The translations under genes were made by a program, and so were the position numbers. Below, piece after piece: positions 4,133-54,746 of a stretch of 64,000 bases of DNA (position 1 is its first letter; the number at the start of each line of letters is the position of its first letter). Origin of the DNA: Candidatus Campbellbacteria bacterium. Its GTDB lineage: Bacteria > Patescibacteriota > Minisyncoccia > Phycocordibacterales > EsbW-18. The stretch lies in NCBI GenBank assembly GCA_016699465.1, contig CP064977.1, forward strand, positions 138,096 through 202,095, in the 5' to 3' direction. The notes beneath the pieces are model-generated. The model did not search any database, was not told the origin of the DNA, and saw only the letters and a program-made list of their open reading frames with translations.

Positions 4133-5548
4133 CTAGGACAAGTATTTGAGGGCAGACTGCTCGTCTTTTTCAACAAAGATTTCAACGGCTCGCTTTGCCT
4201 TTTTAAGTAGGTTCTTTGCTTCTTTTCGTAGTCGCAAAGCTTCCAGTACTTTGTCTGCAAGTTCTTCTTGCTTCTTTTCTGACAACATCGGGATTTTGAC
4301 TTGCAAAGCACTTTCTGGCTTCAAATGGGCGATAACTGCACCACCTGACATACGTTCAATCTGGGCTTTGCAATAAAAAGAGTTGAGGACTAATGCAAGA
4401 TAGTTATTGTTTATCTTTACCTTCGGCTTGAGGCGTAGAAATGCACCGCTTACAATCGCATCAACGTCCTCACTGAGAGCAAACGAGATGCCGATTGTAC
4501 CGTCTTTTGTGAACAACACGTCGCCCTTCTTCGGTTTGTAGTTATTCTTCAACCCTTCGTAAAGTTCTTCTGAGATTTTTCTTTCAACATCTTCAATGCC
4601 GTAGATAGTGAAATCGGAAACACGCACAAAATCTTTTCCTTCTTCTGCGTATGCTTCGCTTCCAACTTCAACACCTTTCTTTATTGACACAATATCGCCA
4701 AGTTTTTCTTGTGGGATAGATGACACCTTTTTCACTATCTCATCGTATTTTGGTTGCCAATACTCGGCATCAAATCGGTTATCTACAAGACAATCACTGA
4801 AGTTTCGGACCGAGATTGCTTCTTCAGTTCCTTTGTATCCTTTAAGGTTTATTTCTTTGAGAAGCATCTGCTCGGCCTCATCGTACCTTTCTTTTGAGAG
4901 AAGAAGCTTCGTATGTAGGGTATCTAATGCATCTCGGAGCTTATTTTTTAGCCCCTCAGCAGCTTCTGGCATAAGCACACTCTCAATATCAGAAACATTC
5001 AACTTTAGTTGAACATTTCCACTTGCCATACGAAAGATTTGCTTCTGTCCAAAATCTGACAACAAAAAGAAAGCGATGTATGCCTTGTCTATTTCATCGG
5101 TCTTTGCAGAAAACGCTAGACCTATATTGTTCTCGCTTATCGCAACTTTTCCGATTTCCTTAGTGATGATACTTAGACGACCTACGGTGCCGATTTTTGA
5201 AAAAACGATGTCGCCAACTGAAAGCTGGTACTTTTTGAGTTTTGTAAAATTGTCATCGCTAACAAATACCATTTGTTCTTTATCAAGAAAGATGTCTTTG
5301 ATGTCTGAAATACGAACAAAGGGGTATCCTTCGGTAAGATAACTCTCACTCTTGAAGAAAGACCCAAACGGTCCACTGAAAACCCTTACATCGTAAACAC
5401 CTTTGATTGTCCGTGCTTTCTTCTTTACGAGAGTTTCAATCTTGTTCAGATAGACGGGGTCGTAATACTCGGCATCCAAACGCCTATCAGCCTGAGCCCT
5501 GCTTAGATTAATGATTGAAAACGATGCTGTTTGTAAGTTTGGTTGCAT
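4133..5548 (-). CDS. hsdS: Type I restriction-modification specificity subunit
   Basis: Two target-recognition-domain halves each preceded by an (R/F)xDAEYY-type conserved motif; 471 aa; 2-nt gap to hsdM. Confidence 0.85.
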   Translation of the reverse strand: MQPNLQTASFSIINLSRAQADRRLDAEYYDPVYLNKIETLVKKKARTIKGVYDVRVFSGPFGSFFKSESYLTEGYPFVRISDIKDIFLDKEQMVFVSDDNFTKLKKYQLSVGDIVFSKIGTVGRLSIITKEIGKVAISENNIGLAFSAKTDEIDKAYIAFFLLSDFGQKQIFRMASGNVQLKLNVSDIESVLMPEAAEGLKNKLRDALDTLHTKLLLSKERYDEAEQMLLKEINLKGYKGTEEAISVRNFSDCLVDNRFDAEYWQPKYDEIVKKVSSIPQEKLGDIVSIKKGVEVGSEAYAEEGKDFVRVSDFTIYGIEDVERKISEELYEGLKNNYKPKKGDVLFTKDGTIGISFALSEDVDAIVSGAFLRLKPKVKINNNYLALVLNSFYCKAQIERMSGGAVIAHLKPESALQVKIPMLSEKKQEELADKVLEALRLRKEAKNLLKKAKRAVEIFVEKDEQSALKYLS

Positions 5549-5550
5549 GG

Positions 5551-7476
5551 TTATTTCAGAAAGCCAAGACCTTGCTCTTTACCCCAAGCGACAAACGCTT
5601 CAGCTATTTCGTCAAGGTCGCTTAGATATTTAGGATTACCGTCTGCATCTTTCACAATTTGACCTTCTTTGTCCTTCTCAAAAATATAATCGCCACTGTT
5701 GTTTTTGAAGGATTGCTTTTGAGTAGCAAAGAAAATCGGATAGTCGGCTACCTTCGGGCTACCGCTCTTATCAAGTTCTTCCTCGGTCCATTTTTGCAAG
5801 AAGATGATTGAGGTCTTTGTTCCTGTGTGTGGCTTGAACGAGTTTCCGTGAAGTCCTACGACCGCAAGGATGCGTGCCTTCTGCATTATGTGTTTACGCA
5901 CATATTCTTGGCTCGTGTTGTTGAAGATGCCTTGAGGTAAAACAACCGCCAAGCGACCGCCTGCCTTTACGAAATCAAGGTTGCGTTCAATGAAGAGCAG
6001 GTGTCGCTCAACCTTGTTTTGAAGTTTGCCTTTAGCGTTCTTTCCAAGCACATACTGAGCCAAGAGATGCTTCTCTTTGATTTCACCTGCAAAAGGCGGG
6101 TTGGCAAGAAGTATGTCAAAGCCGAGATGTTGAAGTGTGCTTTGGTTATGTCGGTTCGTTTCAAAGTCGGCAAACTCACGGACCAGTTTGAGGTCTGAAA
6201 GTTCGCTCTTGAAACGGTCGGACCATTCTCGTGTGTCAAGCGATGATGACTTGAAGATGTGGCTTTTACCATCGCCTGCGATGAGCATAATGGCACGGCT
6301 GATTTTGGTTGATTTCTCGTCAAAATCTATGCCCCAAAGATACCTGCTTGCGTATTCTTTGCGTGCTTCCATGGTAGGTAGGTTTTTCCAAACGTACTGC
6401 ATGGCGTGGACCAAAAACCCTGCACTACCGCACGCTGTATCTATTACATACTCTTTCTTTTGTGGGTTGAGCATCTGCACACACATATCAATCACAACAC
6501 GAGGTGTGAAGTATTGACCTTTCTTTCCTTTGGCTACATCAGGGAGTAGGTACTCAAACGCTTCATCAATAATGCGTAGATTTGCACCGAACAAGCGGAC
6601 ATCTTGAAGTTCGCCAACGCACACAGAAAGATGCTCAGGACTGAGTTTTATTTCTGTGTTTTTTTCAAAAACATCAGACCACTCTGCTTTTGCTTCTTCA
6701 AAGAGTCCATCAATGATACGTTTTGTTTCTTCAGGTTTTCCTGTCGGACTCTTTCGGAAATGTAGCTCTTCATTCGGTCGGCTCAACGCTTCCTTCTCAT
6801 CATAAAGCTTGACGTAGATGAGTTTGAAGATTTCGTCAAAACTGTCGTTTCCTGAGTTTGCAAGCACGAGCTCTTCAAGGGTCTTGATTGTTTCCTTCAA
6901 GTCATCTTCTCGTAGGTCCTTCAGGGTCTTACGCTTTGCGAGCACATCTTCAACCTCTTCATCTGAAGCAGGGATGTCATCCAGCGTGTCATCAAAATCC
7001 TTCGGGTAGGGACGATAGAGGATGAGGCGTGTCTTACCGTTTACTGCAACGCCTACAGGAGCACCTTCAGCATTGAGATACGACTTCAATTGTTGAACAT
7101 CATTCTCTTCATTGGGAGCTTTTACCTCAATAATGATTTTTGGGGTAATGCCGTCTGGTCGGTACACAACAATGTCAGCACGTTTTATCTCACGTCCAAA
7201 ATTGACGTGCTTTTCAAGTTCAATGAGGTCTTTAGGGTATTTGTAGTGTTTTGTGAGCTTTACAAGATAGAGTTGTCGGACGATTTCTTCAGGTGCACAT
7301 TTTCCTGTCTTGGCATTGTAGACAAGCTTCTCTTCATCCAGCTTTGAAATAGCTTTGATGTAGAACTTACCCTCGTCTTTTTCGTAAATGTCTATCTTGG
7401 ACAAATCATCAAACATCAATAGGTCTTGTTCAGGATTTTTGAAGATTTTATTTAGGATTTGTTGTGTTGTGTTCAT
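5551..7476 (-). CDS. hsdM: Type I R-M N6-adenine DNA methyltransferase subunit with an N-terminal HsdR_N-like domain
   Basis: TPRVVIDMCVQML ... DTACGSAGFL (AdoMet site) and LLANPPFAGE (NPPF motif). The N-terminal ~130 aa (KRADIVVYRPDG ... IIIEVKAP) resembles the type I restriction enzyme R-protein N-terminal domain. Confidence 0.8.
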   Translation of the reverse strand: MNTTQQILNKIFKNPEQDLLMFDDLSKIDIYEKDEGKFYIKAISKLDEEKLVYNAKTGKCAPEEIVRQLYLVKLTKHYKYPKDLIELEKHVNFGREIKRADIVVYRPDGITPKIIIEVKAPNEENDVQQLKSYLNAEGAPVGVAVNGKTRLILYRPYPKDFDDTLDDIPASDEEVEDVLAKRKTLKDLREDDLKETIKTLEELVLANSGNDSFDEIFKLIYVKLYDEKEALSRPNEELHFRKSPTGKPEETKRIIDGLFEEAKAEWSDVFEKNTEIKLSPEHLSVCVGELQDVRLFGANLRIIDEAFEYLLPDVAKGKKGQYFTPRVVIDMCVQMLNPQKKEYVIDTACGSAGFLVHAMQYVWKNLPTMEARKEYASRYLWGIDFDEKSTKISRAIMLIAGDGKSHIFKSSSLDTREWSDRFKSELSDLKLVREFADFETNRHNQSTLQHLGFDILLANPPFAGEIKEKHLLAQYVLGKNAKGKLQNKVERHLLFIERNLDFVKAGGRLAVVLPQGIFNNTSQEYVRKHIMQKARILAVVGLHGNSFKPHTGTKTSIIFLQKWTEEELDKSGSPKVADYPIFFATQKQSFKNNSGDYIFEKDKEGQIVKDADGNPKYLSDLDEIAEAFVAWGKEQGLGFLK

Positions 7477-7602
7477 ATATGTTTCTAAACAATATCACTA
7501 TTTAACCCCTTTTTGAACCACATGCAAAAACATACCTTGAAAAGGGTATAATTTTTGTCAACAAAAGGTTTTTTTTACTACTTCCACTCGGAAGTTGATT
7601 GT

Positions 7603-7941
7603 CTATTTACTTGGAAATAGGTGTTTTACAGCAACCTGTATCATATAAGTAATTTGACTTAAGGTTGCCGCTACCAGCAATTTGAAGCTCCACTCTTCTA
7701 ACGCAAAACCTTTAAAAAACACTGCTTGAAAATATGAAAAGATAAATACGGCTGCCGTTTCAAGTGCTAAAAAACCAAACAAGACACTCAGTGTTAGCCT
7801 TTTTAATGCAATATCTTGTTCAAGTGCGTCATTCTCTAATTTTTTCTTCCGGACATCCTCATTAATTTTTGTTCGCTTACCTCCTTGGAATGGCTCAAAA
7901 TCTTTCAGGTCAAAAACTATTTGTCTTAAATCTTTATCCAT
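7603..7941 (-). CDS. Small hypothetical protein with a charged N-terminus and two C-terminal TM helices, cotranscribed with ImmA and hsdMS
   Basis: 112-aa ORF, 4-nt gap to the upstream ImmA gene, hydrophobic segments LTLSVLFGFLALETAAVFIFSYF and FKLLVAATLSQITYMIQV. Confidence 0.4.
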   Translation of the reverse strand: MDKDLRQIVFDLKDFEPFQGGKRTKINEDVRKKKLENDALEQDIALKRLTLSVLFGFLALETAAVFIFSYFQAVFFKGFALEEWSFKLLVAATLSQITYMIQVAVKHLFPSK

Positions 7942-7945
7942 AACA

Positions 7946-8476
7946 TTATATTAATTTCAACCTTTCCAGTCTGATACTCATTGCAGAGATAGAAACATTA
8001 AAAATTTTTGCACACTCCTCTACATCTTTGAGGGTTGTCCATGCATCTTGAACCAATTTTGTTGGCATTATTAATGCAGCCGCAAAGTTATTTGCCTCAG
8101 TTTCAATTTTTGTAGTTGCAGCTGCATCCAAGCGAAATAGCGCATTGGATCCGTCCAAAGAGTTTTCTCCAATATCTACCAATAAATTATCATTGGTTTT
8201 AATTTCATCTTTATGCAAAAAGTAGTGCCCTATTTCATGAGCTATGGTGAAATTTTGTCTTGTTGCTGGTTTGTTTTTGTTGACGATAATCCTGAACTTT
8301 TCTTCAGTTGTTAAAAAGATGATTGCACCAGAAATTCCATGGTCAAATTCAGCCAGAACAATTTCCAAGTCACCTTTGTCACCAGTAATTCTTTCATATG
8401 GAAAAGGCGATAATCCTAGTGGATTATACTTAGCAGCTAGATCTTCAGCATATGCACAAATCTCCTCTTTGGTCAT
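7946..8476 (-). CDS. ImmA/IrrE family zinc metallopeptidase (DUF955)
   Basis: HEIGHYFLH HEXXH motif in the ImmA/IrrE context. Confidence 0.7.
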   Translation of the reverse strand: MTKEEICAYAEDLAAKYNPLGLSPFPYERITGDKGDLEIVLAEFDHGISGAIIFLTTEEKFRIIVNKNKPATRQNFTIAHEIGHYFLHKDEIKTNDNLLVDIGENSLDGSNALFRLDAAATTKIETEANNFAAALIMPTKLVQDAWTTLKDVEECAKIFNVSISAMSIRLERLKLI

Positions 8477-13301: not shown

Positions 13302-13644
13302 GAGTGAGCTGCTTTAACATTTTGGCACGAAGTTTGTTGTCGGGAAGCATGCCGTAGACCGCTTTGCGAAGTGCTTCACCATATCCTTTCTTTGTTACAA
13401 GATTTTCGAGTGTTTGACGTCGAAATCCACCTGGATACTGTGTGTGATGTGTGTAATCCTTTGTGCGCAACTTTGTAGCAGAAATATCCATCTTTGATAC
13501 GTTGATAACCTTCACTTCATGTTTTGGATACGTATTTCGTGCGTAGTCAGCTGCGTCTTTACCCTGCAAAATGCGAGCAATTTCAGAAGCGAGGCGACCC
13601 ATTTTTTTGTTTTGTGCGTCAAGCGTTTTCATAGAATTATACAA
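13291..13644 (-). CDS. rplM: 50S ribosomal protein L13
   Basis: GRLASEIARILQGK ... YTHHTQYPGG pattern. Confidence 0.9.
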   Translation of the reverse strand: MYNSMKTLDAQNKKMGRLASEIARILQGKDAADYARNTYPKHEVKVINVSKMDISATKLRTKDYTHHTQYPGGFRRQTLENLVTKKGYGEALRKAVYGMLPDNKLRAKMLKQLTLEE

Positions 13645-13990
13645 ATGAGATTACTCCTTGTGGTGCGGCGTCGCTTGCACGAGTTTCAACTTTGGTGATG
13701 CGTGTGTAGCCACCAGCGCGCTCAACGTATGCTTTTGCTCGTTCAATAAGCTTGTCGGTAACGGTATGATCTGTCGTACCAAGTGTTGCAATGAGATCTC
13801 GACGTACAGCAACTGTCGGATTCTTTGCCTTCGTAACGAGCTTTTCAACAAATGGGCGAATTTCTTTCGCACGTGGAAGAGTCGTCTGCATTGAACCATG
13901 CACGATGAGAGAGGACGCCAAAGAACGCATAAGCGCTAGTCGCTGGTCTTTTTCTCGTCCGAATTTTCGTTGTACGTTACCGTGTCGCAT
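13637..13990 (-). CDS. rplQ: 50S ribosomal protein L17
   Basis: MRHGNVQRKFGREKDQRLALMRSLASSLI ... TTLPRAKEIRPFVEKLVTKAK. Confidence 0.9.
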   Translation of the reverse strand: MRHGNVQRKFGREKDQRLALMRSLASSLIVHGSMQTTLPRAKEIRPFVEKLVTKAKNPTVAVRRDLIATLGTTDHTVTDKLIERAKAYVERAGGYTRITKVETRASDAAPQGVISFV

Positions 13991-13999
13991 AAAAAATAA

Positions 14000-14977
14000 T
14001 TACTGTCGGAGGATAATACCATAGTTTGCAAGGGCTCGGCGAATTTCCTGCAATCCCTTGTCTCCAAGACCTTCAACTTCTAACAAATCAGCTTCTTTCT
14101 TTCGTACGAGACCTCCTACAGTGCGGATGTTTGCACTCGTAAGCGCATTCTCTGTTCGTGTTGAAAGGTCAAGTGATTCAATACGTGTTTTGAGGAATTC
14201 CTTTGCATCTTCATCTGCGTTTTCTGCTTGCGATGTTTCTGTTGTTTCGCCTCCTTTAACTTCGTGCACCACAGCTTCTTCAAAGTTTTCTTCTTGGAAG
14301 CCAACGATTGAACGGAGCTGTTGAATCATAGTACTGATTGATCGTTCAAGTACCGTACGTGGAGCAATTGTACCATCTGTTTCAATAAACATTTTGATGC
14401 GGTTGAAATCTGTTCGATCACCAACGCGCATGTTTTCAACTTCGTAGGTTGCTCGGCGAATAGGTGTGAACGCTGCATCAAGTACGATGGTACCGATTTC
14501 AACACGGTCACGATGAAGGTTTTCCTTTGGAACGTATCCGAGACCTTTTTCAACGTGCATTTCAATCGTAAGTGTGTTTTTTCCTGTAAGCTCGCAAATG
14601 TATGCGTCTGGGTTGAGTACTGTGAGTTGTCCAGGAACGGTAATATCTTTTGCAGTAATGTGTGCTGGGCCCTTTGCGGTCAATGTGACCATTTGTGGCT
14701 CATCTGTTGTCATTTCAAAACGAATTTGTTTGAGGTTAAGCAAAATGTTAACCACATCTTCTTTCACACCCTCAATCGTTGAAAATTCATGAGGAACACC
14801 ATCAATTTTAACTGCGGTAATAGCAGCACCTGGAATAGATGACAAAATGATACGGCGGAGAGAGTTACCAAGCGTGTGGCCATATCCCGGATACAATCCG
14901 TCAATTTGGTACATACCGGCGTTACCTTTCTCGGTGATAACTTTTGGTTGCGATGGCAAATGTATTGTGTAGTCCAT
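14000..14977 (-). CDS. rpoA: DNA-directed RNA polymerase alpha subunit
   Basis: LRRIILSSIPGAAITAVKIDGVPHEFSTIEGV, alpha-CTD at the end. Confidence 0.95.
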   Translation of the reverse strand: MDYTIHLPSQPKVITEKGNAGMYQIDGLYPGYGHTLGNSLRRIILSSIPGAAITAVKIDGVPHEFSTIEGVKEDVVNILLNLKQIRFEMTTDEPQMVTLTAKGPAHITAKDITVPGQLTVLNPDAYICELTGKNTLTIEMHVEKGLGYVPKENLHRDRVEIGTIVLDAAFTPIRRATYEVENMRVGDRTDFNRIKMFIETDGTIAPRTVLERSISTMIQQLRSIVGFQEENFEEAVVHEVKGGETTETSQAENADEDAKEFLKTRIESLDLSTRTENALTSANIRTVGGLVRKKEADLLEVEGLGDKGLQEIRRALANYGIILRQ

Positions 14978-17048: not shown

Positions 17049-18359
17049 CTATTCTGTTGCGATGAGAACGTCAATTTTTTCTGGGTTTGACGGGAATGAT
17101 AATCGCCACACAGGACGTATAACCAAGTCTGCATTTTCAATGCCTGTGTACGTAGCAATAACCTCACTTGCAGCCGATCGACTCTTTCCTGCGATATCGC
17201 TTGCGAGTTGTTCTGCGTCAAATTTCCACAACAAATTGGTTGAACCCTGAATCTTAAATTCAATATCTGACAATGTTGAGAACTTTGTTGATGAAGCTGT
17301 TGGTTCGATGACAAGAGCCTTCGGATCCTTGAAGTACACATCACTTCCGTCATATCCTGCAACCATTACGCGAGCAACCATGGCTCCCAATTTTGTTTCA
17401 TCAACGGCCACCAAGGATGCAGTTCCCTTTACACGAACTGAAACCGACGTATCCGTTGCTCCATCTGCATTTGGTAACGTTTGATAACTTGTTTGAACTG
17501 TTGAAGGGACAGGAATAAATCCTTCAGGCACTGCGCCGAGGACTTCATTTTCAAGAGCTGTCTTGAGCTCAGCATTCAAACTATCGTATGCTGCTTTTGT
17601 ATCAGCCGCAGAAGCTGTTTTAACCGTTCCCGCAAACCCACCAGTCATGGGTGTCTTTGAGCGGGCATAGAAACCAGCAAATCGCGGTGCGTCTTTATCT
17701 TTAAATCCCGGAATAGTGAAATCAGAAAGACCGATGTTGTATTTCTCCCCCGCGCTATCTGCAAACACTTCAGCCTCTACACTTCCCGGTACCATATCCC
17801 CTTTTTCGTTTTTGTGCTTACCAGGAACATTAATTGACTCTTTAATGCGGTAAATAAGACCATCTGGCGTTTCAAATCGAGTATTTGTGATGAGTTTTTG
17901 TATTTGGTCGTCAAAATTGTTGTACACAATGATAGTTCCCGATGCAGGGCGCTCAACACGCTCTTGTCCAGTTGCGGCAACTTCTTTGCTCATTTCTTTA
18001 TCAAGAGTAACCATTTCAAATCCAATACCATCAGCTACAGGAGCAAGTGACGCAGTGAAAGTGTGGTCGAGATTAACAAGTACTGATTTTGGATGCACCG
18101 TCACTTTTCCACCCGCAAAAAGTGCACTTGAACTAAAAAAGATAACGAGAATGGCAGCAACAACACCACCCCACACTAGATATTTTTTTGAACCTCGACC
18201 TGTTGAAACAAGAGGAGACGCATTTCGTGGAGGAAGTGTTACGCCAATAGTTTCTGGCGACGCATCACCACTTTCTTCTGGACGAGATGAAAACGTTTGG
18301 GGGCGCTCAATAGAAATATTACGAATTGATTTTTTTTCTGATGGTACAAAGTCCTGCAT
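17049..18359 (-). CDS. Bitopic membrane protein of unknown function (cytoplasmic N-terminal ~60 aa, one TM, large extracytoplasmic domain)
   Basis: TM segment YLVWGGVVAAILVIFFSSSALFA; 436 aa. Confidence 0.4.
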   Translation of the reverse strand: MQDFVPSEKKSIRNISIERPQTFSSRPEESGDASPETIGVTLPPRNASPLVSTGRGSKKYLVWGGVVAAILVIFFSSSALFAGGKVTVHPKSVLVNLDHTFTASLAPVADGIGFEMVTLDKEMSKEVAATGQERVERPASGTIIVYNNFDDQIQKLITNTRFETPDGLIYRIKESINVPGKHKNEKGDMVPGSVEAEVFADSAGEKYNIGLSDFTIPGFKDKDAPRFAGFYARSKTPMTGGFAGTVKTASAADTKAAYDSLNAELKTALENEVLGAVPEGFIPVPSTVQTSYQTLPNADGATDTSVSVRVKGTASLVAVDETKLGAMVARVMVAGYDGSDVYFKDPKALVIEPTASSTKFSTLSDIEFKIQGSTNLLWKFDAEQLASDIAGKSRSAASEVIATYTGIENADLVIRPVWRLSFPSNPEKIDVLIATE

Positions 18360-18391: not shown

Positions 18392-19624
18392 CTATTGTAC
18401 TCCTTTTTTCTCATCTCTCATAGCAAGAGACTTATGCACATAGAGCATTGAGAAGATGAGGAGCGGGTGCACCGACGTCACGTCCTCGTTGGCAGTGTAA
18501 AAAGGCTTCAACGTATCGCTTGTCAGCACCACACTACTCAGTGGTGAACCTGTGTGCGAACTCACAATGCGCTCTGTGGGCATAAAAAATGTTTGTAGAG
18601 AAACAAAATCTACTGATTCACCGAGAATAAACACCGACGTAGGAATACCTCCTTCTTGTTCGAGTTGAAAAAGAATGTTTCCACAGTGTGTCGCCCACTC
18701 TTTTTGTGTTTTTTCTTGCGCCTCAGTATATCGTTGGGCGACAGTAGCGTCTAATTTACCCGCCTGAAGCGACCGTACCGTACCAAGCACTTCTTCTGGA
18801 AGAATACCTGCATACTGTGCAAATGAACGCATTGCAGATGATGTACCATACGGAAATGTTGCCGTTTCAACCAATACACCATTTCGAACAAACGACACAT
18901 CTGTTACTTCTGAAGAGATATCAACAATAAGGAAGGAGTTTTCTGTAACAAGCGTATCTTGTATACCCACAAATTCCATTGTTGGTGCACATCGGTGCGT
19001 ACAAGGCGTATGTGAGAAAAAACGAGACACACTTTCTTCAACGTACGAATGGAATTTTTTTGAAAGTGCGCCAGACACCACTGAAAACGAAATATGCTTC
19101 CCCACTTTTCCGAGAGGTGTTTCGATTGCATAGCCATTGAGGTGCGTTCCAACGATGTGCTGCTCTAATAGATACACAGAATCTGTTTCATCGGTGCGTA
19201 TTGTTTGAAATGCGTCAAATGATATATGCTGAGCGAGTAATTCAGCCAACATCTTTTGTGTTACCAGTACCGGGCTATCTTTTTCAATTGTGAGTGTTTG
19301 TGTTTGTGAAATAAACCATGGAGATCCGTATACGCAATAGATGTGATCTATATGACCACGTTGGACTCGACGAGACGAAACAAGTGGAATACCCTTTGCC
19401 ACAATTTCGGTGCACGCATCAACAAGAGCCTGCAGTGTTACTGTAGAAAGTCGTGCATGATCAAGTGTTTCTTGAAATGGAACCGCTTTTGAAACACTGT
19501 ACGCAATAAAGGGTTTTTTCTGTGGGTACGCCAAAACAAGAGCTACATGAACGGCACCACTTTCAATACAACAAAGAAGAAAACTATGTTCTTTTTGTTT
19601 TTGTGATCCAAATACAAAGGACAT
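18392..19624 (-). CDS. Actin-fold (FtsA/PilM-like) protein, possibly with a degenerate ATP site
   Basis: FLIVDISSEVTDVSFVRNGVLVETATFPYG parallels the FtsA VVDIGGGTMDIAV ... IPYAG block; the N-terminal phosphate loop is not canonical. Confidence 0.4.
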   Translation of the reverse strand: MSFVFGSQKQKEHSFLLCCIESGAVHVALVLAYPQKKPFIAYSVSKAVPFQETLDHARLSTVTLQALVDACTEIVAKGIPLVSSRRVQRGHIDHIYCVYGSPWFISQTQTLTIEKDSPVLVTQKMLAELLAQHISFDAFQTIRTDETDSVYLLEQHIVGTHLNGYAIETPLGKVGKHISFSVVSGALSKKFHSYVEESVSRFFSHTPCTHRCAPTMEFVGIQDTLVTENSFLIVDISSEVTDVSFVRNGVLVETATFPYGTSSAMRSFAQYAGILPEEVLGTVRSLQAGKLDATVAQRYTEAQEKTQKEWATHCGNILFQLEQEGGIPTSVFILGESVDFVSLQTFFMPTERIVSSHTGSPLSSVVLTSDTLKPFYTANEDVTSVHPLLIFSMLYVHKSLAMRDEKKGVQ

Positions 19625-25809: not shown

Positions 25810-27138
25810 TTATTGTGCCATCCGTTCTATTGATACACCAATCGCACGAAGTTTTTCTTCGCACTGTTCGTATCCACGATCTATAAAGTGTACATTATGA
25901 ACACGCGACGTTCCCTTTGCAACACACGCGGCAATAATGTATGCCAAACCAGCACGTAAGTCTGGCGTATACAACTCACGACCAGTCAACTTACATGGGC
26001 CTCGCACGACCGCACGGTGCGGATGAGCAATATCGATTGTGGCACCCATATACACAAGATCTTTTGTATACCCCAACCGCCCTTCAAATATCATTTCCTC
26101 AACAATACTTTCACCGTTTGTTTGGGTAAAGAAGACAGTGAATGGTGCCTGCAGGTCTGTCGGAAACCCTGGGTACTCGTGCGTACGAAGTGAACTACAA
26201 ATAAACTCTTTATTTTCTTTTGTGTTGTTGACAATACGGATTGTAGAATCAGTTGTTTCGATTGGTACACCACAGCTCTGTAAAATACGAATGGGTAATT
26301 CGAGGTGTGCGGGATTACAATTTGTAATTTCCAAACGCTCTGCGCAAAGCGCGCCAAGCACCATGTAACTTCCCGCTTCAATCCTGTCGGGAATCACCCG
26401 ATATGGTTCTGATGCAGTATATGAAAGTAATTCTCCACCTGTTCCTCGAATCGTGAGTGTCATGGTACCAATTCCTTCAATACGAGCTCCACATGATTTC
26501 AAAAAATGTGCGAGTTCTGTCACCTCAGGTTCAAGAGCCACATTCTTAAGAAAAGTTGTACCGTGCGCCAAAATCGCAGACATGAGAAGTGTCTCTGTAG
26601 CGGTCACACTCTGTACCTTAAAAAATATTTCAGTACCAATGAGACCTTTTTCTGTTGTTATGGTAAATGAATCCCCATTATGATCTGCAACGCGTGCACC
26701 CATGCTTGTGTATCCATCAAGAAACAAATCGATGGGGCGCTTACCAATAACACATCCTCCGGGTGATGGAAATGAAATAGCTCCCAAACGCGACAACAGT
26801 GGGCCTGTAAGAATAATTGATGCACGTAGTTTGTGTGCAGTGTCCGTATCAAAACTACCATTTGTAATTTTTTCAGGATGAACAACAACCATATCTCCAT
26901 TTCGGACAACGCGCGCACCAGCGTGCGTCAACAATGTTGTCATGTGTTCAATATCGGTTATATCTGGCACATTAGAAAAAGATACCGGCGTTTTAAAAAG
27001 TACCGCACTTGCCAATAGTGGAAGAATATGGTTTTTCGCTCCAGCAACAGCTATACGGCCAGACAACGTTTTTTTGCCATTAAGCCCTGTTACATTAAAA
27101 ACATCTTGTGTTTCAGCCATAGAGATATAGTACCCCAC
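25810..27138 (-). CDS. murA: UDP-N-acetylglucosamine 1-carboxyvinyltransferase
   Basis: EPSP-synthase fold; N-terminal GRIAVAGAKNHILP. Confidence 0.9.
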   Translation of the reverse strand: MGYYISMAETQDVFNVTGLNGKKTLSGRIAVAGAKNHILPLLASAVLFKTPVSFSNVPDITDIEHMTTLLTHAGARVVRNGDMVVVHPEKITNGSFDTDTAHKLRASIILTGPLLSRLGAISFPSPGGCVIGKRPIDLFLDGYTSMGARVADHNGDSFTITTEKGLIGTEIFFKVQSVTATETLLMSAILAHGTTFLKNVALEPEVTELAHFLKSCGARIEGIGTMTLTIRGTGGELLSYTASEPYRVIPDRIEAGSYMVLGALCAERLEITNCNPAHLELPIRILQSCGVPIETTDSTIRIVNNTKENKEFICSSLRTHEYPGFPTDLQAPFTVFFTQTNGESIVEEMIFEGRLGYTKDLVYMGATIDIAHPHRAVVRGPCKLTGRELYTPDLRAGLAYIIAACVAKGTSRVHNVHFIDRGYEQCEEKLRAIGVSIERMAQ

Positions 27139-27163: not shown

Positions 27164-29077
27164 ATGTACAGTATGTTCATCATCTCAGTTGTCCCATTCA
27201 CATCAAAATCTGTCCTCGCACCCCTTTCGTATTATTTTCAAAGGGAACTTTCAAGTGGCACACTCGTGACTATTCCTTTTGGTGCACAGCGCATAGTAGG
27301 TCTCGTTATTGAATCAAAAAGTGCACACCTTGAAAAAGCATCTATTCGTCGAGCAGACTTTTCAATGAAAAAAATTGTGAGTGTTGAATCAGAAACTGCT
27401 TTTTCAAAAGAGTACATTGAAACTTGCACCGACATTGCACGTCATCATGCAACAACACTCGGTACGGTTCTCTCAACACTTGTTTCTCATCCACTTGTGC
27501 GAGCACTTCGAGAAACAAATCGAAGTACCACAACACTCATAACGCACGCAGAAGCACCTGAAGTAAAAATTTTCGAAGATACAGACGACTCTCGTATTAG
27601 CAGATACAAAGCATTAACGCGAGAATCATTTGCACACGCACTGTCTGTATGCATCGTGTGCCCAACAATTGCTGAAGCGGAACGTTTAGGACAACATCTT
27701 ATAAAAGGAATTGAGGGAAGATGTTTTGTACTTACCGGACGGCTCACTCCCAAAAAAATATTTGAGACCTATACAAGTATACTTGAAGCACAACACTCGA
27801 TCCTCGTCATCACCACACCTTCACTTGCCTTTTTTCCACGACACGACATGGGACTCTATGTTGTAGAACATGAATCATCCCTCAATTACAAACAACGCGA
27901 ACGTCCATATCTTGATTACCGATTCTGCATTGAATCATTCGCACGGCATCAAAAGTGCGACGCAATACTCGGAGATTCTTTCTTGCGAATTGAAACACTC
28001 TATCGATACTATCAACATACACTCTCAGAAGTTGCCCGCCCATCTCTCCGGCAAGAAAGTGCAAACGTCATACACATTGTTGATATGCGCACACAGCGTT
28101 CTGGAGAAAGTGCCCCTCCACTACCACTTTTCTCAAAAGAATCCCGCCTCGCAATTGCTGGCGCACTAGAAGAAAAACGCCGTCTCTTTATTTTCTGTGT
28201 TCGAAAAGGGTTTGCGCCATTCACGGTGTGCAGAGATTGTGGCCACATCCTTTCATGTGACGCATGCGATGCGCCTATGGTGTTGTACGGCTTAAAAGAT
28301 GTTCAAGAATCCCGTTCATTTAAATGTAACCGCTGTGGAAAATCAAAAAATGCACGAACGGTGTGTCCGGTATGCTCGAGTTGGCGACTAGAAGCATACG
28401 GTGTTGGTATCGAACGTATTCTCGATTTCTTAAAGACTCATCATCCTACAGCACTCACATTTGTGGTAAGTAGAGACACAACAACGACTCCGCAAAGTGC
28501 ACAAAAAGTGGTAGATGCGTGGGAAAAAACTTCCTCCGGTATTTTATTGGGAACAGAAATGTCACTTCCACACATACGTCCAAAATCTGCACATAGTGGT
28601 ATCGTTGCGTCCCTCGACACACTCACCTTTTTACCTGATTTTCATATGGGCGAACGCGTGTTCCATCTTGTAACAACTCTTGCTTCACTTGTTTCGCAAC
28701 GACTGTATATTCAAACACGCACTCCTGAATACACATCTCTAGTATATGCAAAAGCAGGAGATGGAATGGGAATGTACCGATACGAGGAAGCTTCTCGAAA
28801 AAAATTCGGCTATCCACCATTTACTCTATTCATAAAAATTTCAAGACATGGAGACAAAGAAACTGTTCTTAAAGAATTGAACGCACTCAAAGAACGATTC
28901 GCAGACTACTCGCCTGTTGTGTATCCTGCATTTGTGTCCAGAATTCGAAATTCATTTTTTGCACATCTCCTTTTGACACTCCCACGCGAGTCTTGGTCTG
29001 ACACGAAACTCGTTACAGCTCTACAAGCGCTCCCTCCACAATACGCCGTGAATGTTGATCCCGACTCACTTCTCTAG
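27164..29077 (+). CDS. priA: Primosomal protein N' (PriA) homolog with degenerate helicase motifs I and II
   Basis: Collinear with PriA: VTIPFGAQRIVGLV, ILVITTPSLAF ... YVVEHESS, RRLFIFCVRKGFAPFTVCRDCGHILSCDACD zinc ribbon, ILLGTEM. No GxGKT Walker A, and DEEH is replaced by VEHE. Confidence 0.65.
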   Translation: MYSMFIISVVPFTSKSVLAPLSYYFQRELSSGTLVTIPFGAQRIVGLVIESKSAHLEKASIRRADFSMKKIVSVESETAFSKEYIETCTDIARHHATTLGTVLSTLVSHPLVRALRETNRSTTTLITHAEAPEVKIFEDTDDSRISRYKALTRESFAHALSVCIVCPTIAEAERLGQHLIKGIEGRCFVLTGRLTPKKIFETYTSILEAQHSILVITTPSLAFFPRHDMGLYVVEHESSLNYKQRERPYLDYRFCIESFARHQKCDAILGDSFLRIETLYRYYQHTLSEVARPSLRQESANVIHIVDMRTQRSGESAPPLPLFSKESRLAIAGALEEKRRLFIFCVRKGFAPFTVCRDCGHILSCDACDAPMVLYGLKDVQESRSFKCNRCGKSKNARTVCPVCSSWRLEAYGVGIERILDFLKTHHPTALTFVVSRDTTTTPQSAQKVVDAWEKTSSGILLGTEMSLPHIRPKSAHSGIVASLDTLTFLPDFHMGERVFHLVTTLASLVSQRLYIQTRTPEYTSLVYAKAGDGMGMYRYEEASRKKFGYPPFTLFIKISRHGDKETVLKELNALKERFADYSPVVYPAFVSRIRNSFFAHLLLTLPRESWSDTKLVTALQALPPQYAVNVDPDSLL

Positions 29078-29083
29078 GTCGCC

Positions 29084-30352
29084 ATGCTCGTGATACAATA
29101 CGACCACATGACCGAGAAAAGTAAAAAAGTTTCTACAGAGCCGTACAAGGGTGTTCGGGATTTTTATCCTGAAGACATGGCGGTACAAAAATATATTTTT
29201 GGGGTATGGCGCAAAGTAAGTGAGCAGTTTGGGTATGAAGAATATGCTGCATCGATTTTAGAGCCCACAGAGTTGTATGCTTCAAAAACAAGTGATGAGA
29301 TTGTAAACGAACAAACATACACATTTACTGACCGCGGCGAACGAAGTGTAACGCTTCGTCCAGAAATGACACCGAGTGTGGCACGTATGGTGGCCGCACG
29401 AAAACGAGAACTTGCGTTCCCACTTCGTTGGTATTCAATACAAAACTTTTTTCGATACGAGCGCCCACAACGTGGTCGTGTTCGCGAGTTTTGGCAATTA
29501 AACGCCGATATGTTTGGCGTAAATAGTATTGATGCTGATGTGGAAATTATTTCGCTTGCATACCACATTATGAAAGCGTTTGGGGCAAACGATGAAGATT
29601 TTCAAATTAGAATAAATCACAGAGATTTACTACAAGAAAGAATTCTACACATGCTCCGTGATCAGTCGTCTCTGCCTCAAGCAATACGTTTGATAGATAA
29701 GAAGCAAAAAATGTCTTCAGAAACTTTTGCGGAGGCGTGGGCTACGCTCTCCAACGTGCCTTTTGTGTTTGAAACACAAAAAAAAGCAGAGGTTATAACA
29801 CGCTTAGAGTCGCGAGGAATACGAAACGTTGTTTTGGATGAACTCTTAGCACGTGGTTTTGATTACTACACAGGAATGGTATTTGAGGTTTTTGATACAA
29901 ACCCTGAAAATAACCGCTCCATCTTTGGTGGCGGACGATATGACAGATTACTTGAATTGTTTGGTGATGAAGTTGTCCCTGCCGTCGGTTTCGGGTTAGG
30001 CGATGTCACCATGCGTGATTTTCTTGAGACACACAAATTGTTGCCAGCACATATTTCAGAGACAGATATTCTGATTTGTCCAGTAAATGAAGAGAGTGTT
30101 GAACTAGCCAGTGAACTCGCTGATGAGTTTAGAAAACAAGGTGTTAGTGTTGCTGTATATCTTGGTACAAAGAAAATTGGAGATCAAATTTCACTCGCCA
30201 ACAAAAAGAAAATTCCTTTTGTTGTTGCTGTGGGCTTAGAAGAAAAAGAGCGTAATGAATTTACTCTAAAAGAACTTAAAACTGGGCGAGAAGAACTTGT
30301 TCAAAATCGAGATATTGTAGGACCCTTAAGACGTTGTGGTTTTAAAATATAA
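29084..30352 (+). CDS. hisS: Histidine--tRNA ligase
   Basis: KGVRDFYPED, motif 2 FRYERPQRGRVREFWQ, C-terminal anticodon-binding domain. Confidence 0.88.
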   Translation: MLVIQYDHMTEKSKKVSTEPYKGVRDFYPEDMAVQKYIFGVWRKVSEQFGYEEYAASILEPTELYASKTSDEIVNEQTYTFTDRGERSVTLRPEMTPSVARMVAARKRELAFPLRWYSIQNFFRYERPQRGRVREFWQLNADMFGVNSIDADVEIISLAYHIMKAFGANDEDFQIRINHRDLLQERILHMLRDQSSLPQAIRLIDKKQKMSSETFAEAWATLSNVPFVFETQKKAEVITRLESRGIRNVVLDELLARGFDYYTGMVFEVFDTNPENNRSIFGGGRYDRLLELFGDEVVPAVGFGLGDVTMRDFLETHKLLPAHISETDILICPVNEESVELASELADEFRKQGVSVAVYLGTKKIGDQISLANKKKIPFVVAVGLEEKERNEFTLKELKTGREELVQNRDIVGPLRRCGFKI

Positions 30353-30357
30353 TACCC

Positions 30358-30933
30358 ATGAAAAAAGTTGTCTTTGATATAGAAACAAGGAACATTTTTG
30401 ATGATGTTGGAAAAAATGATCCAGCACTTTTAGATATTTCAATTGTTGGTGTATATGATTACGAAACAGACACGTACACATCGTACGCTCAAGAAGAATT
30501 TCCAGCACTTTGGGCGCTTCTCGAACGAGCTGATGTGCTCATTGGTTTTAACTCAGACCACTTTGATATTCCACTTCTCAATAAATATTTTCCAGGAGAA
30601 CTCACTGCACTTAAAAGTATTGATATCATGACGTCTATAAAAGATGCTCTCGGAAGACGACTGTCACTCAACAACGTTGCAGGTGCAACACTTGGACTTA
30701 AAAAAAGTGCAGATGGACTTCAAGCATATCAGTGGTGGAAAGAAGGCAGGGTACAAGAAATTCGCGACTACTGTCTTCAAGATGTAAAAGTAACCAAGGA
30801 TTTGTACGAACACATCGTTGCACATAAAAAAATAAAATATCGTGACGGTCAAGATCTTAAAGAACTTACCCTTGACACATCCGAGTGGGATAAGGGTGGT
30901 GATCACGCACTTACCTATTCTCTTGGTTTCTAG
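30358..30933 (+). CDS. DEDDh 3'-5' exonuclease (DnaQ/RNase T-like)
   Basis: Exo I FDIET, Exo II FNSDHFDIP, Exo III YCLQDVKVTKDLYEH. Confidence 0.75.
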   Translation: MKKVVFDIETRNIFDDVGKNDPALLDISIVGVYDYETDTYTSYAQEEFPALWALLERADVLIGFNSDHFDIPLLNKYFPGELTALKSIDIMTSIKDALGRRLSLNNVAGATLGLKKSADGLQAYQWWKEGRVQEIRDYCLQDVKVTKDLYEHIVAHKKIKYRDGQDLKELTLDTSEWDKGGDHALTYSLGF

Positions 30934-31789: not shown

Positions 31790-34729
31790 TTATGCAGGGT
31801 GTTTTTTGTGTGTAATCATTTTTCCGAGGGTACAGTACTGACAGCTACGTTCCGTACACGTTGAGTTCCAAAATGAAAGTTCACGAATCTCTTCGGCAAC
31901 TCGTGCAATGGTCTGCGTAAGTTCCTGAACATGGGCATCGGTAAGCTCAAATAGTTCATTTCGGAAAACACCTTTTGTATCAGGTTCTACAAAAATGAGT
32001 GCCCCCTGACGTGCCGTATAAAGTCCCTCAAGAGAAAGAATGAGGCGATAAAAAACAAGCTGTCGAAAATAATCTCCGTTACTATTTTTTGTTTTACCCT
32101 CAATCTCATTTCGACTTTTTGGTTTGCCTGTTTTGTAATCAACAACAGAAACGACCGAATCCCCACCTGTGTGCATATCCACACGATCAATAACTCCCCG
32201 TAGCTCGACATGGTGGGCTTGAGGTAATGGAAGCACGGCACGTACGGAATGTTCCCACAATGAAAGCCGTGGATGTGTTGGCTTATGAGTATTCCAGAAT
32301 TTTTCGATAACATGCATCCCCTTATGTACAAACAATTCTTCCTCGCGTTCTGAAATCGCACTTTGAAGTGCAGCTTTGTGAATACTTTTTTGTAGATACA
32401 TGTGTGTCACTTTCTTTCCTGAAGCTTCTCGTTCACCGAGCAACCGAAGTGTCATGTGGAGCATGGTACCAAACCGTTGTGGTGAACTCGGAGCTGTTGG
32501 AATACGGAGAAGATTTACAAAAAAATATTTCCACGGACACGAAAGATAATTATTAAGCGCAGAAACAGAAAATCCCTGCTCAGAAAAAAGCCGATTGAGA
32601 AATTCTTTTTCTGCAATATCGAGCCCTACAGCAATCGGTTCAGCAAAAGAAAGTTTTTTTGTAATATCCTGAAGAATACGCGCCGTGGTGTCTGTTGTTT
32701 CTCGCACAACAACACGCGCATCAAGCTCCTCAATAAACTGCGACGGAGTTTTTGGTGAGCCGCTCATGTCTGTTTTTGGAAATGTGAGAACCACTTCCTT
32801 TTTTGCGCGTGTCAAAGCAACGTACAACAACCGTCGCTCATCATCATCACTTGTTTCAATAAGTGACGGGACGGTAAACAACGAGCGTTTTTTACGATTT
32901 CCCCAATGCCCATCAACCACGTCTGTGATATAGACATGTTCAAACTCAAGCCCCTTTGCTCGATGTGCCGTCATGAGCGTTACCGCTGATACAAGGCCTG
33001 TATCAGGAAGCATTTTGAGCGTACTACCGTGCTCTTCCATAATAGCAATATGTTCAAGAAAGTCGGAAAGTTTGTACATCCCAACACCTGTCGAAAGTGT
33101 TTTAACCTCCTGAAACAAAACCTCCAGGGCCTTCAAAGTATCTGCAGATCCTGGCGCACGAATAACCGATGCAATAAAATTCGATTCACGCACCACACTA
33201 TCAAACACCTCAATAAATGGACGTGTCCGTCCGCGTTGTGACCACGAAAGTATCTTTGAAAAACTATTGAGTATGTGTGCACTCTCTTCAATACCAGCAT
33301 CTGTGAGATATTTTTTTGACGAAAGAACTGTTGAAAGCGGAATGCGTTTTATGCTTGCGTACGTCAGTGCTTTATATGCATCAAGAGAATGAATCTCTAA
33401 AAATGGCGCGAAGAGTATCTCGCCCAACAACATACTATCGGTAACATGATGTATAAGATTAAAAAGTTGAATGAGAGTATGAATGTGTGTATTTTCGAGC
33501 ACATTAACATTTGATTTAATAACGAACGGAATAGTTGTGCGCTCAAGGAGTGTTGCCAATTCGTGTGCATCAGTATTATCACGATAGATAAGAGCTATTT
33601 CTTCCCATGGAGTTCCTTCAGCGTGCACCCGCTCTATTTCGTGAATCAAAAACGCACGTTCTTCTGAATCCGTACCACACGTAACTACCCGCACGCGCGA
33701 TGTTCCTTTCCGCGCGGATTGCAACGGAACACGAAGTTTTTGTATATCATGCGACATTGCCCCAGAAGATATTAAACCGTGTGCCGCATCTAAAATACTT
33801 TGTCCTGAACGATAGTTACTTGTAAGGAAAATAAGTTTCGCCGTATGGTATCGTTTTTTAAAATAGAGAAAATTTTCCAATGATGCACCTTGAAAACGAA
33901 AGATCGCCTGTTTTTCATCACCAACAATAAGAAGATTCGGCGTATCATCATACGAAGAAAGTAATTCAAGTATGGCATTCTGTGATGCGTTTGCGTCTTG
34001 ATGTTCGTCAGCAAGAATGTACTGGAATCGTTCTTGAAGCGTTGCCCGAAGTGTCTCGTGTTCTTTAAGCGCCGTTACCACATCCAAAAGCATGTCATCA
34101 AAATCAAATGATTTATTCTTAGTAAGCGCTTTTTCATATTCTTCATACACAATAGCAAGTTCAGTATTGCGTCCATATCGAACGGCGTCTTCTTGTTGCT
34201 CTTTATTTTCTAAAAGTGCTTTAAATTTCTCAGCAGTACTCCCTTCACGTTTAAGGGATTGAATCGCCTTGAGTGCGTCATTCACATAGTGAAATGGACT
34301 TCCAAACGGCTTGATATGTGTAAATGTGTGACGCTCAATAATTTCTCGAACAATTTTTATCTGCTCAATATCTCGGATATGGTGCGAACCAATAATACGA
34401 GGAAAATATTCTGGGTAACGACTAATAACGTCATTTGCAAACCCATGAAATGTATTAATGTGTACACGATACGCATCCGTGCCAATAATCTCAAACAACT
34501 TCGTACGCATGGATGACACGGCACTTTCGGTAAACGTCAGAGCTAAAATAGAGCTTGCTGAGGCATCTGTTTTCTGCAATATATTTGCTATACGGAGAGT
34601 CAGAAGTGTCGTCTTACCAGTACCAGGACCTGCAATGACCATCACTGGCCCATAAATCGTGTCTACGGCCTTTTTTTGCTCAGCATTGAGTGCTTTATAT
34701 TGTTTTTGAAATACAGGACTTGTGCGCAT
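31790..34729 (-). CDS. UvrD/PcrA-family helicase fused to a C-terminal PD-(D/E)xK (RecB/AddB-like) nuclease domain (start trimmed to MRTSPVF)
   Basis: Walker A AGPGTGKTT; C-terminal GVIDRVD ... VVDYKTGK with a Cys cluster ending CQYC. Confidence 0.75.
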   Translation of the reverse strand: MRTSPVFQKQYKALNAEQKKAVDTIYGPVMVIAGPGTGKTTLLTLRIANILQKTDASASSILALTFTESAVSSMRTKLFEIIGTDAYRVHINTFHGFANDVISRYPEYFPRIIGSHHIRDIEQIKIVREIIERHTFTHIKPFGSPFHYVNDALKAIQSLKREGSTAEKFKALLENKEQQEDAVRYGRNTELAIVYEEYEKALTKNKSFDFDDMLLDVVTALKEHETLRATLQERFQYILADEHQDANASQNAILELLSSYDDTPNLLIVGDEKQAIFRFQGASLENFLYFKKRYHTAKLIFLTSNYRSGQSILDAAHGLISSGAMSHDIQKLRVPLQSARKGTSRVRVVTCGTDSEERAFLIHEIERVHAEGTPWEEIALIYRDNTDAHELATLLERTTIPFVIKSNVNVLENTHIHTLIQLFNLIHHVTDSMLLGEILFAPFLEIHSLDAYKALTYASIKRIPLSTVLSSKKYLTDAGIEESAHILNSFSKILSWSQRGRTRPFIEVFDSVVRESNFIASVIRAPGSADTLKALEVLFQEVKTLSTGVGMYKLSDFLEHIAIMEEHGSTLKMLPDTGLVSAVTLMTAHRAKGLEFEHVYITDVVDGHWGNRKKRSLFTVPSLIETSDDDERRLLYVALTRAKKEVVLTFPKTDMSGSPKTPSQFIEELDARVVVRETTDTTARILQDITKKLSFAEPIAVGLDIAEKEFLNRLFSEQGFSVSALNNYLSCPWKYFFVNLLRIPTAPSSPQRFGTMLHMTLRLLGEREASGKKVTHMYLQKSIHKAALQSAISEREEELFVHKGMHVIEKFWNTHKPTHPRLSLWEHSVRAVLPLPQAHHVELRGVIDRVDMHTGGDSVVSVVDYKTGKPKSRNEIEGKTKNSNGDYFRQLVFYRLILSLEGLYTARQGALIFVEPDTKGVFRNELFELTDAHVQELTQTIARVAEEIRELSFWNSTCTERSCQYCTLGKMITHKKHPA

Positions 34730-34788
34730 GAATCCTATTGTAGCATTTTTGAAAAGACCGACGCTTACAGATATAGTATAAAAAAATA

Positions 34789-34811
34789 AGGCCGGAAAGT
34801 ATTTCCGGCCA
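34789..34811 (-). terminator. Hairpin ggccggaaa/tttccggcc plus T-run terminating the small GC-rich gene
   Basis: 9-bp stem; a T7 run follows on the minus strand. Confidence 0.55.
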
Positions 34812-34825
34812 ACGTACACGACGAC

Positions 34826-54703: not shown

Positions 54704-54746
54704 AGCTATAAGCTAACAAGCTATAAGCTAACAAGCTATAAGCTAT
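54704..54746. repeat. Tandem 15-mer AAGCTATAAGCTAAC, about 2.9 copies, overlapping the smc stop codon; member of the ATAAGCTAACAAG motif family
   Basis: aagctataagctaacaagctataagctaacaagctataagctat. Confidence 0.8.

Follow-up and report, generated by a model that had tools for sequence, protein, structure and literature searches.

We report that a gene on the forward (+) strand of a 64,000-nucleotide stretch of a Candidatus Campbellbacteria genome (GenBank assembly GCA_016699465.1, contig CP064977.1, positions 138,096 to 202,095; hereafter the window, in whose numbering all coordinates are given) encodes a homolog of PriA that lacks the ATPase motifs of that helicase. The gene (27164..29077, 637 codons plus stop, delimited by the open reading frame [ORF] call and PriA homology) belongs to a large family from the Parcubacteria group of the Candidate Phyla Radiation (CPR), and we consider it probable that its product is a functional PriA pseudohelicase, i.e., a fork-recognition and primosome scaffold that works without a motor. 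Homology, fold, motif loss, the conservation of that loss across the clade, and purifying selection are demonstrated by the analyses described here. A first-pass annotation of the same DNA, made from the letters alone, had proposed that this protein lost ATPase and helicase activity and kept a DNA-binding scaffold, and motif analysis of the family, a structural model, and the selection on the gene all lend support to that proposal.

The identification of the product as a PriA homolog, likewise put forward at first pass, is borne out at every level of comparison. The 3' DNA-binding domain of PriA is recognized by Pfam in aa 21-106 (PriA_3primeBD, PF17764; E=4.1e-8; 33.4 bits against a cutoff of 22.7 bits); in the same scan DEAD, Helicase_C, ResIII, and PriA_C (PF18074) gave no match, and PriA_CRR stayed under threshold. 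Fourteen NCBIfam models of PriA match the protein, all of them under their curated cutoffs, with the best scores obtained from NF004066 (E=8e-63) and from TIGR00595 (priA; E=4e-55), an equivalog model whose threshold is failed at 187.4 bits against 230.35; NF004069 aligns aa 15-633 to positions 10-608 of its 612. This shortfall against the curated priA model (187 versus 230 bits) is the reason why many members of the family (P0002, P0079, P0085, P0086, P0206, and others) have been deposited as "hypothetical protein"; their JGI name is primosomal protein N'. PriA was the only match in a phmmer search of the Protein Data Bank (PDB), with the Klebsiella pneumoniae and Escherichia coli structures at E=1e-26, and a family profile built from 79 members recovered solved PriA at E=8e-68. 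The AlphaFold2 prediction that the first-pass annotation had suggested, run on the family alignment, yielded a confident model (mean predicted local distance difference test [pLDDT] score, 91.2; predicted template modeling score [pTM], 0.89). When this model was compared with the PDB by Foldseek, PriA chains took the first nine places (template modeling [TM] score up to 0.77, E down to 1e-37), and Mfd and DEAD-box helicases followed only at E~1e-10 or weaker. Model and Foldseek matches together place two RecA-like lobes of the superfamily 2 (SF2) helicase fold in the protein.

The fold is kept, and the motifs that would make it an ATPase are lost throughout. The regular expressions G....GK[ST], DE.H, and Q..GR.GR find no match anywhere in the protein, and the alignments agree. 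The motif I (Walker A) region (aa 137-148, 27572..27607, +; FEDTDDSRISRY against HGVTGSGKTEVY in canonical PriA) is degenerate: the Walker A columns (aa 138-145) read EDTDDSRI in place of GVTGSGKT, with R144 standing at the column of the Walker lysine, and the motif as a whole (aa 138-147) is EDTDDSRISR for canonical HGVTGSGKTE. Motif Ia keeps only the proline of LVPEIALT. Farther along the + strand, motif II (aa 235-238, 27866..27877) is EHES for DEEH; motif III, the SAT motif (aa 270-274, 27971..27985), is GDSFL for GSATP; motif V (aa 462-466, LGTEM, 28547-28561) carries GTEM (aa 463-466) for GTQM, a change of glutamine to glutamate; and motif VI (aa 505-512, 28676-28699) is lost, with TLASLVSQ at the place of QVAGRAGR. 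The first-pass annotation, which had already reported Walker A and DExH as missing, had located them differently. LITHAEAPE, which it put at the GxGKT position, spans aa 125-133 and belongs to the linker that precedes strand beta-1 of the first RecA-like lobe, about 12 residues N terminal of the Walker A columns, and VEHE (aa 234-237), which it put at the DEEH position, is off by one, the true columns being E235-H236-E237-S238. These errors leave the conclusion that the motifs are lost unchanged, and no conserved P-loop that might have been misplaced came to light in a multiple alignment with canonical PriA. The state of the nucleotide pocket was judged from the sequence and from the DSSP string of the model, in which a strand at residues 134-138 and a helix from residue 141 leave about 2 loop residues versus an eight-residue P-loop. 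Canonical P-loops persist in an AddA-like helicase (AGPGTGKT) and an SMC protein (GPNGSGKS) encoded elsewhere in the window, which makes the loss specific to the priA-like gene. Because the P-loop, the acid and histidine of motif II, the SAT motif, the glutamine of motif V, and the arginine pair of motif VI are lost, the protein is most likely unable to bind or hydrolyze ATP or to unwind DNA, as judged from sequence and model.

Motif loss is not peculiar to this one genome; by sequence comparison it looks like an ancient trait of the Parcubacteria group at large. Walker A and motif VI occur in 0 of 111 close homologs (28-98% identity; full-length ones 543-687 aa), and a DE.H string in just one of them (P0086, residue 206), where it lies off the motif II column; the nine canonical PriAs recovered by the same search, which served as controls, all have Walker A and motif VI, and eight have DE.H. 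HMMER searches of 1.84 billion representatives clustered at 50% identity returned at least 150 matches, the best 150 of which are all full-length and score between 709 and 868 bits. Canonical PriA reaches about 232 bits with the same family profile, and since the 150th-best representative still scores 709 bits, the family far exceeds 150 clusters at 50% identity. Columns were counted in 146 representatives (50% identity) among the best 150 matches. Arginine occupies the Walker lysine column in 145 of the 146, and the last glycine of the P-loop has become glutamate or aspartate in 135. Motif II takes the form [ED]-[RKH]-E-[SN], with DEEH surviving in one sequence only, and motif III the form G-D-x-x-L, the aspartate (D271 column) being present in 131. 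The change of glutamine to glutamate in motif V (G-T-E) is found in 134, and motif IV, R-[RK]-G, is kept in at least 139.

A second subfamily (P0109, P0274-P0390) extends the same pattern to 116 sequences of about 600-620 aa, whose source names read Parcubacteria, Paceibacterota, or "Pacebacteria." Its derived states are nearly fixed: Arg144, Asp271, and an arginine at the catalytic glutamate column each occur in 116 of 116 sequences and Glu465 in 115, and the third acid of motif II is also lost. In the cysteine-rich region (CRR) of this subfamily the outer cysteines (C356/359/401/404) are present in all 116 sequences and the inner columns (C365, C368, C388, C391) in none, a pattern that implies a single predicted zinc site. 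Because these derived characters are common to subfamilies only about 28% identical to each other, the comparison speaks for a single, ancient loss within the Parcubacteria group and for its maintenance over the long term. Homologs of the nearest canonical PriA (P0113) came only from Dormibacterota and Chloroflexota, and no intact PriA from other classes of Patescibacteria was among them.

Besides the motor motifs, one whole domain is missing. Collinearity with PriA over the full length, as proposed at first pass, holds for the 3' DNA-binding domain, the cysteine cluster, and the C-terminal region, but not for the circularly permuted winged-helix (WH) domain of about 90 residues that canonical PriA carries ahead of helicase lobe 1, which by sequence and model is absent. 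In its place, a linker of only ~25 residues (aa 109-132, 27488..27559, +; it contains LITHAEAPE) joins the 3' DNA-binding domain to RecA-like lobe 1. This linker is poorly conserved, with no conserved columns; it is the block of lowest pLDDT (68) and has a ratio of nonsynonymous to synonymous substitution rates (dN/dS) of 0.49. With 6DCR, an E. coli PriA engineered to lack the WH domain (delta-WH), the family profile gives one uninterrupted alignment, and with full-length PriA the alignment falls into two pieces, leaving ~90 residues unmatched; the top Foldseek match is the same engineered protein (6dcr_A; TM 0.77, E=1e-37).

The remaining parts of PriA are all represented on the + strand, in the canonical order. 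The 3' DNA-binding domain (3'BD; aa 1-108, 27164..27487, delimited by PF17764 and alignments) has Y23 and K70 at the positions of Y18 and K61, residues with roles in the 3'-end pocket of E. coli PriA (PMC5778457), as well as G40 at that of G37; S22 stands in place of the pocket residue D17. RecA-like lobe 1 (HD1; aa 133-295, 27560..28048), placed by the secondary structure of the model and the fold match, has lost its ATP-binding motifs and still holds 18 columns conserved at 90% or more. Within it, the loop after motif II (aa 239-253, 27878..27922; SLNYKQRERPYLDYR), delimited by conservation and alignment, has an invariant P248 and near-invariant D251 and R253. The corresponding loop of E. 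coli HD1 wedges into the fork junction (PMC10175261), and we infer that the two loops are functionally equivalent. RecA-like lobe 2 (HD2) is split by the CRR. Its first part (aa 296-352, 28049..28219) includes a retained motif IV, VRKGFAP (aa 346-352, 28199-28219), in which R347 and G349 are invariant; the motif IV residues R427/R428 of E. coli contact lagging-strand single-stranded DNA (ssDNA) in the PriA pore (PMC13594977). The CRR (aa 353-408, 28220..28387) contributes four CxxC pairs (C356/359, C365/368, C388/391, C401/404) that are conserved in 93-100% of the family and 100% of canonical PriA, implying two predicted zinc sites. The second part of HD2 (aa 409-545, 28388..28798) includes motif V and the lost motif VI, and the probable C-terminal domain (CTD; aa 546-637, 28799..29074), placed by the match of the whole chain to the PriA fold, opens with the conserved YPPF (aa 550-553), of which P551 and P552 are invariant, and ends on a conserved DP. 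In E. coli PriA, the counterparts of these surviving residues make contacts with DNA or support the fold.

With these parts in hand, a mechanism modeled on the E. coli structures may be outlined in which the protein serves as a fork-binding scaffold. The 3'BD would capture the nascent leading-strand 3' end at an abandoned fork or D-loop, HD1 with the loop after motif II would be positioned at the fork junction, and the CRR, HD2 (through the Arg/Lys of motif IV), and CTD would clamp the ssDNA of the lagging-strand template. Both RecA-like lobes would then have been kept as a rigid scaffold, the DNA-bound protein would offer a platform for the reloading of DnaB, and ATP-driven unwinding of a duplex lagging arm would be beyond it. 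Fork binding and a role in restart or helicase loading are thus ascribed to the protein by analogy. The role of "restart-loader adaptor" proposed at first pass is plausible on the same grounds, by comparison with Deinococcus radiodurans PriA (PMC4504706) and the E. coli priA300 mutant (PMC5778457).

Loss of motifs could also mark a gene on its way out, i.e., a pseudogene or a gene being lost from a reduced genome under relaxed selection. Patescibacteria genomes are indeed reduced, and the subthreshold score with the NCBI priA equivalog model, together with the "hypothetical protein" label of many members, might be taken in the same sense. Against this, the ORF is intact, and it is full-length in >370 sequenced lineages; in the window it is uninterrupted, the frameshifts that had been named at first pass as a sign of a pseudogene are absent, as are internal stops, and collinear homologs cover 100% of it. 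We compared the gene with its 87%-identical ortholog in the Campbellbacteria metagenome-assembled genome (MAG) L001, a pair with a synonymous rate (dS) of ~1.0. At 0.084 its dN/dS is on par with that of the essential murA (0.076), the same comparison giving 0.14 for hisS and 0.02 for mreB. Resolved by domain, the most constrained parts are the CRR (0.022) and the supposedly dead RecA-like lobe 1 (0.043), ahead of the second part of RecA-like lobe 2 (0.064), the CTD (0.11), and the 3'BD (0.13). The residues that replaced the canonical motifs are themselves near-invariant, and the structural model is confident. The gene is functional and under strong purifying selection; a decaying relic is accordingly a very improbable account, and we rejected the pseudogene reading on dN/dS and conservation.

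If the gene is functional, its product might still differ from a motor-less restart scaffold in one of two directions. It could be an active ATPase or translocase with a non-canonical nucleotide site made up of Arg144, E235, and E237. The invariance of an arginine at the Walker lysine column, the [DE]-x-E remnant of motif II, the very strong constraint on RecA-like lobe 1, and the second, weaker nucleotide site suggested for E. coli PriA (PMC5778457) could all be read that way. Nevertheless, every P-loop glycine is gone, with phosphate-repelling acidic residues in their stead; the modeled loop is down to about 2 residues; both arginines of motif VI, the SAT of motif III, and the glutamine of motif V are lost; and subfamily 2 dispenses even with the third motif II acid. 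K230R alone abolishes the ATPase of E. coli PriA, and no ATPase activity could be measured for the D. radiodurans protein, in which the same exchange is found, so that a working ATPase here strikes us as quite unlikely. Somewhat less so, though still doubtful, is a neofunctionalized structure-specific DNA binder, engaged in fork protection or occlusion, binding of recombination intermediates, or regulation, with restart carried out by something else. Degeneration has gone beyond that of Deinococcus (the WH domain is lost, and subfamily 2 has lost one zinc site as well), no PriB, DnaT, or DnaD partner is recognizable in the window, and the new charged residues that are conserved where ATP once bound might reflect a newly acquired interface. 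However, what was kept is the set of parts by which E. coli PriA recognizes forks (pocket residues of the 3'BD, motif IV, CRR, and CTD), the protein is the sole PriA homolog in every locus examined (the window and six related loci), E. coli can restart replication with a helicase-dead PriA, and DnaB is bound by the PriA of D. radiodurans.

The restart scaffold without a motor thus remains the reading that we favor, and several points weigh against it. The ATPase loss on which it turns is read from the sequence and a predicted model. In E. coli, the helicase activity of PriA is needed for the PriA-PriC pathway and for forks with a duplex lagging arm, so that some substrates would be out of reach for a motor-less PriA if no other helicase stepped in; that the AddA-like helicase of the window does so is speculation. 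A second, intact priA, which the first-pass annotation had advised looking for, was not found, the search having taken in the whole 64-kb window plus 16-22 kb at each of six related loci. Likewise, PriB, DnaT, DnaD, DnaB, and DciA were not recognized in the 64-kb window, and because these partner proteins were not found there, the DnaB-loading step is a conjecture. A bolder and decidedly tentative extension would cast the near-invariant charged residues at formerly ATP-contacting positions (Arg144, the acidic residues 142/143, the Arg/Lys/His236 position, Asp271, and Glu465) as an intramolecular salt-bridge network that mimics the nucleotide and locks the RecA lobes in a single DNA-clamping conformation. 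Such a constitutively primed, ATP-independent, WH-less minimal PriA would recruit DnaB by direct contact, with no need of PriB, DnaT, or DnaD, and would represent the restart system ancestral to one of the major radiations of bacteria.

Comparison with known systems sets off what is shared from what is new. With canonical PriA (E. coli and K. pneumoniae; 4NL4, 6DGD, 8FAK) the protein has in common the order of 3'BD, RecA-like lobes, CRR with eight cysteines inside lobe 2, and the probable CTD, as well as the R-[RK]-G of motif IV, the G-T of motif V, YPPF, and the tyrosine and lysine of the 3'BD, and Foldseek TM scores against canonical structures run from 0.65 to 0.77. Unlike them, it is without Walker A, DExH, SAT, the motif V glutamine, the motif VI arginines, and the WH domain, is ~95 residues shorter, and scores below the TIGR00595 cutoff. 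The closest precedent for such a loss is the PriA pseudohelicase of Deinococcus-Thermus. In D. radiodurans PriA, the Walker lysine is an arginine, and there is no measurable ATPase or unwinding, whereas binding of ssDNA and forks is near normal and the protein binds DnaB (PMC4504706). The two share degenerate motifs I and II, the lysine-to-arginine change, an apparently retained functional gene, and a proposed part in restart as a scaffold without a motor. They differ in that the Parcubacteria form belongs to another and far larger clade, has no WH domain, is degenerate also in motifs Ia, III, V, and VI, and has acidic residues for the P-loop glycines and conserved charged replacements elsewhere. 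We assume that the two losses were independent, on the basis of distant taxonomy only.

Two E. coli constructs bracket the protein from the experimental side. The product of the priA300 allele (K230R) is dead as an ATPase and as a helicase but can still assemble primosomes and sustain restart through PriA-PriB (PMC5778457, PMC13594977). A changed Walker lysine is shared with this allele and with K230A/D, and the lysine-to-arginine exchange is that of priA300 itself. However, priA300 is a laboratory point mutant with an otherwise intact motor that does not support the PriA-PriC pathway, whereas in Parcubacteria the whole nucleotide site is remodeled; moreover, PriB and PriC are not known in the Parcubacteria lineage. 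The delta-WH protein 6DCR, in turn, is an artificial construct with all ATPase motifs kept, and the priA-like protein is a natural one of the same architecture without them. Deinococcus is the sole exception given in a review from 2017 (PMC5778457), and we found no published description of a motor-dead PriA from CPR, Patescibacteria, or Parcubacteria in the literature searched.

The gene lies in a conserved chromosomal setting. Because homologs are 632-637 aa long and Met4 is near-invariant in the family alignment, the ATG at 27173 (Met4) is the probable start codon, which would give a protein of 634 aa. The gene is divergent from murA (25810..27138, -), its neighbor, and from mreB. Directly downstream follow hisS (29084-30352, +) after a gap of 6 nt and an RNase H-fold exonuclease-like gene (30358-30933, +) after a further 5 nt; given the shared strand and these short gaps, the three genes probably form one operon. 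Scans for promoters and terminators around the priA-like gene were uninformative. The gene order HhH-GPD/mreB/murA/priA-like/hisS/RNase H-like/DsbA-like, and farther on sigma70/dnaG, is kept in all six related genomes compared (L001-L006), in which the identity of PriA to the window protein descends from 87% to 47%; the nearest relatives of both protein and locus are MAGs labeled Candidatus Campbellbacteria or Paceibacterota. Between the DsbA-like gene and sigma70 lies the AddA-like gene (31790-34819, -), which encodes 1009 aa comprising a UvrD helicase with an intact Walker A and a C-terminal PD-(D/E)XK nuclease. At its syntenic position, L001 has only a PDDEXK_1 gene for 274 aa (13525-14349).

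Elsewhere in the window, several features are of separate interest. A SAM (S-adenosylmethionine) riboswitch (RF00162; 53.8 bits; 2612-2718, -) lies directly upstream of metK (1470-2561, -), the S-adenosylmethionine synthetase gene. A restriction-modification-like cluster (4133-8476, -) comprises an HsdS-like specificity subunit (4133-5548) and a fused HSDR_N and N6 DNA methylase (5551-7476), and is adjoined, with a small ORF between, by a gene with an IrrE/M78 peptidase domain (7946-8476). The SMC_N-family protein (54743-57043, -), at 766 aa, is short for a bacterial SMC, and its head domains are matched end to end. The region 61683-64000 (-), with an elevated GC content of 0.53, a GC skew of +0.33, and a weak HNH_5 hit as its sole family match, looks like an array of repeat-protein genes: two complete ORFs, paralogous and arranged in tandem (61724-62560 and 62564-63712), have identical N termini (MPTSCPELMMKYHAWKDAVATLRQ...) and 63-nt (21-aa) tandem repeats, 23 copies in total, and a third copy apparently runs past the end of the window. 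Three further ORFs on the - strand, of 436 aa (17049-18359), 410 aa (18392-19624), and 258 aa (141-917), have no or only subthreshold Pfam matches.

The Parcubacteria group of the CPR thus adds to Deinococcus a second exception to the motor-bearing PriA, far larger and apparently much older, with more than 150 clusters at 50% identity, every examined member motor-dead, and strong selection on the gene. Since the scores are subthreshold and the labels often "hypothetical," PriA may be overlooked in gene-content surveys and wrongly recorded as lacking in CPR genomes. At ~630 aa, the protein offers a minimal PriA for structural and mechanistic work, and it raises the question of how ultra-small symbiotic bacteria clear a duplex lagging arm and load DnaB. 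If the proposed salt-bridge lock were real, the universal core of PriA would be fork recognition and scaffolding, with unwinding a secondary function. The family is evidence from nature that PriA can dispense with unwinding and the WH domain but not with structure-specific fork recognition and scaffolding of the primosome.

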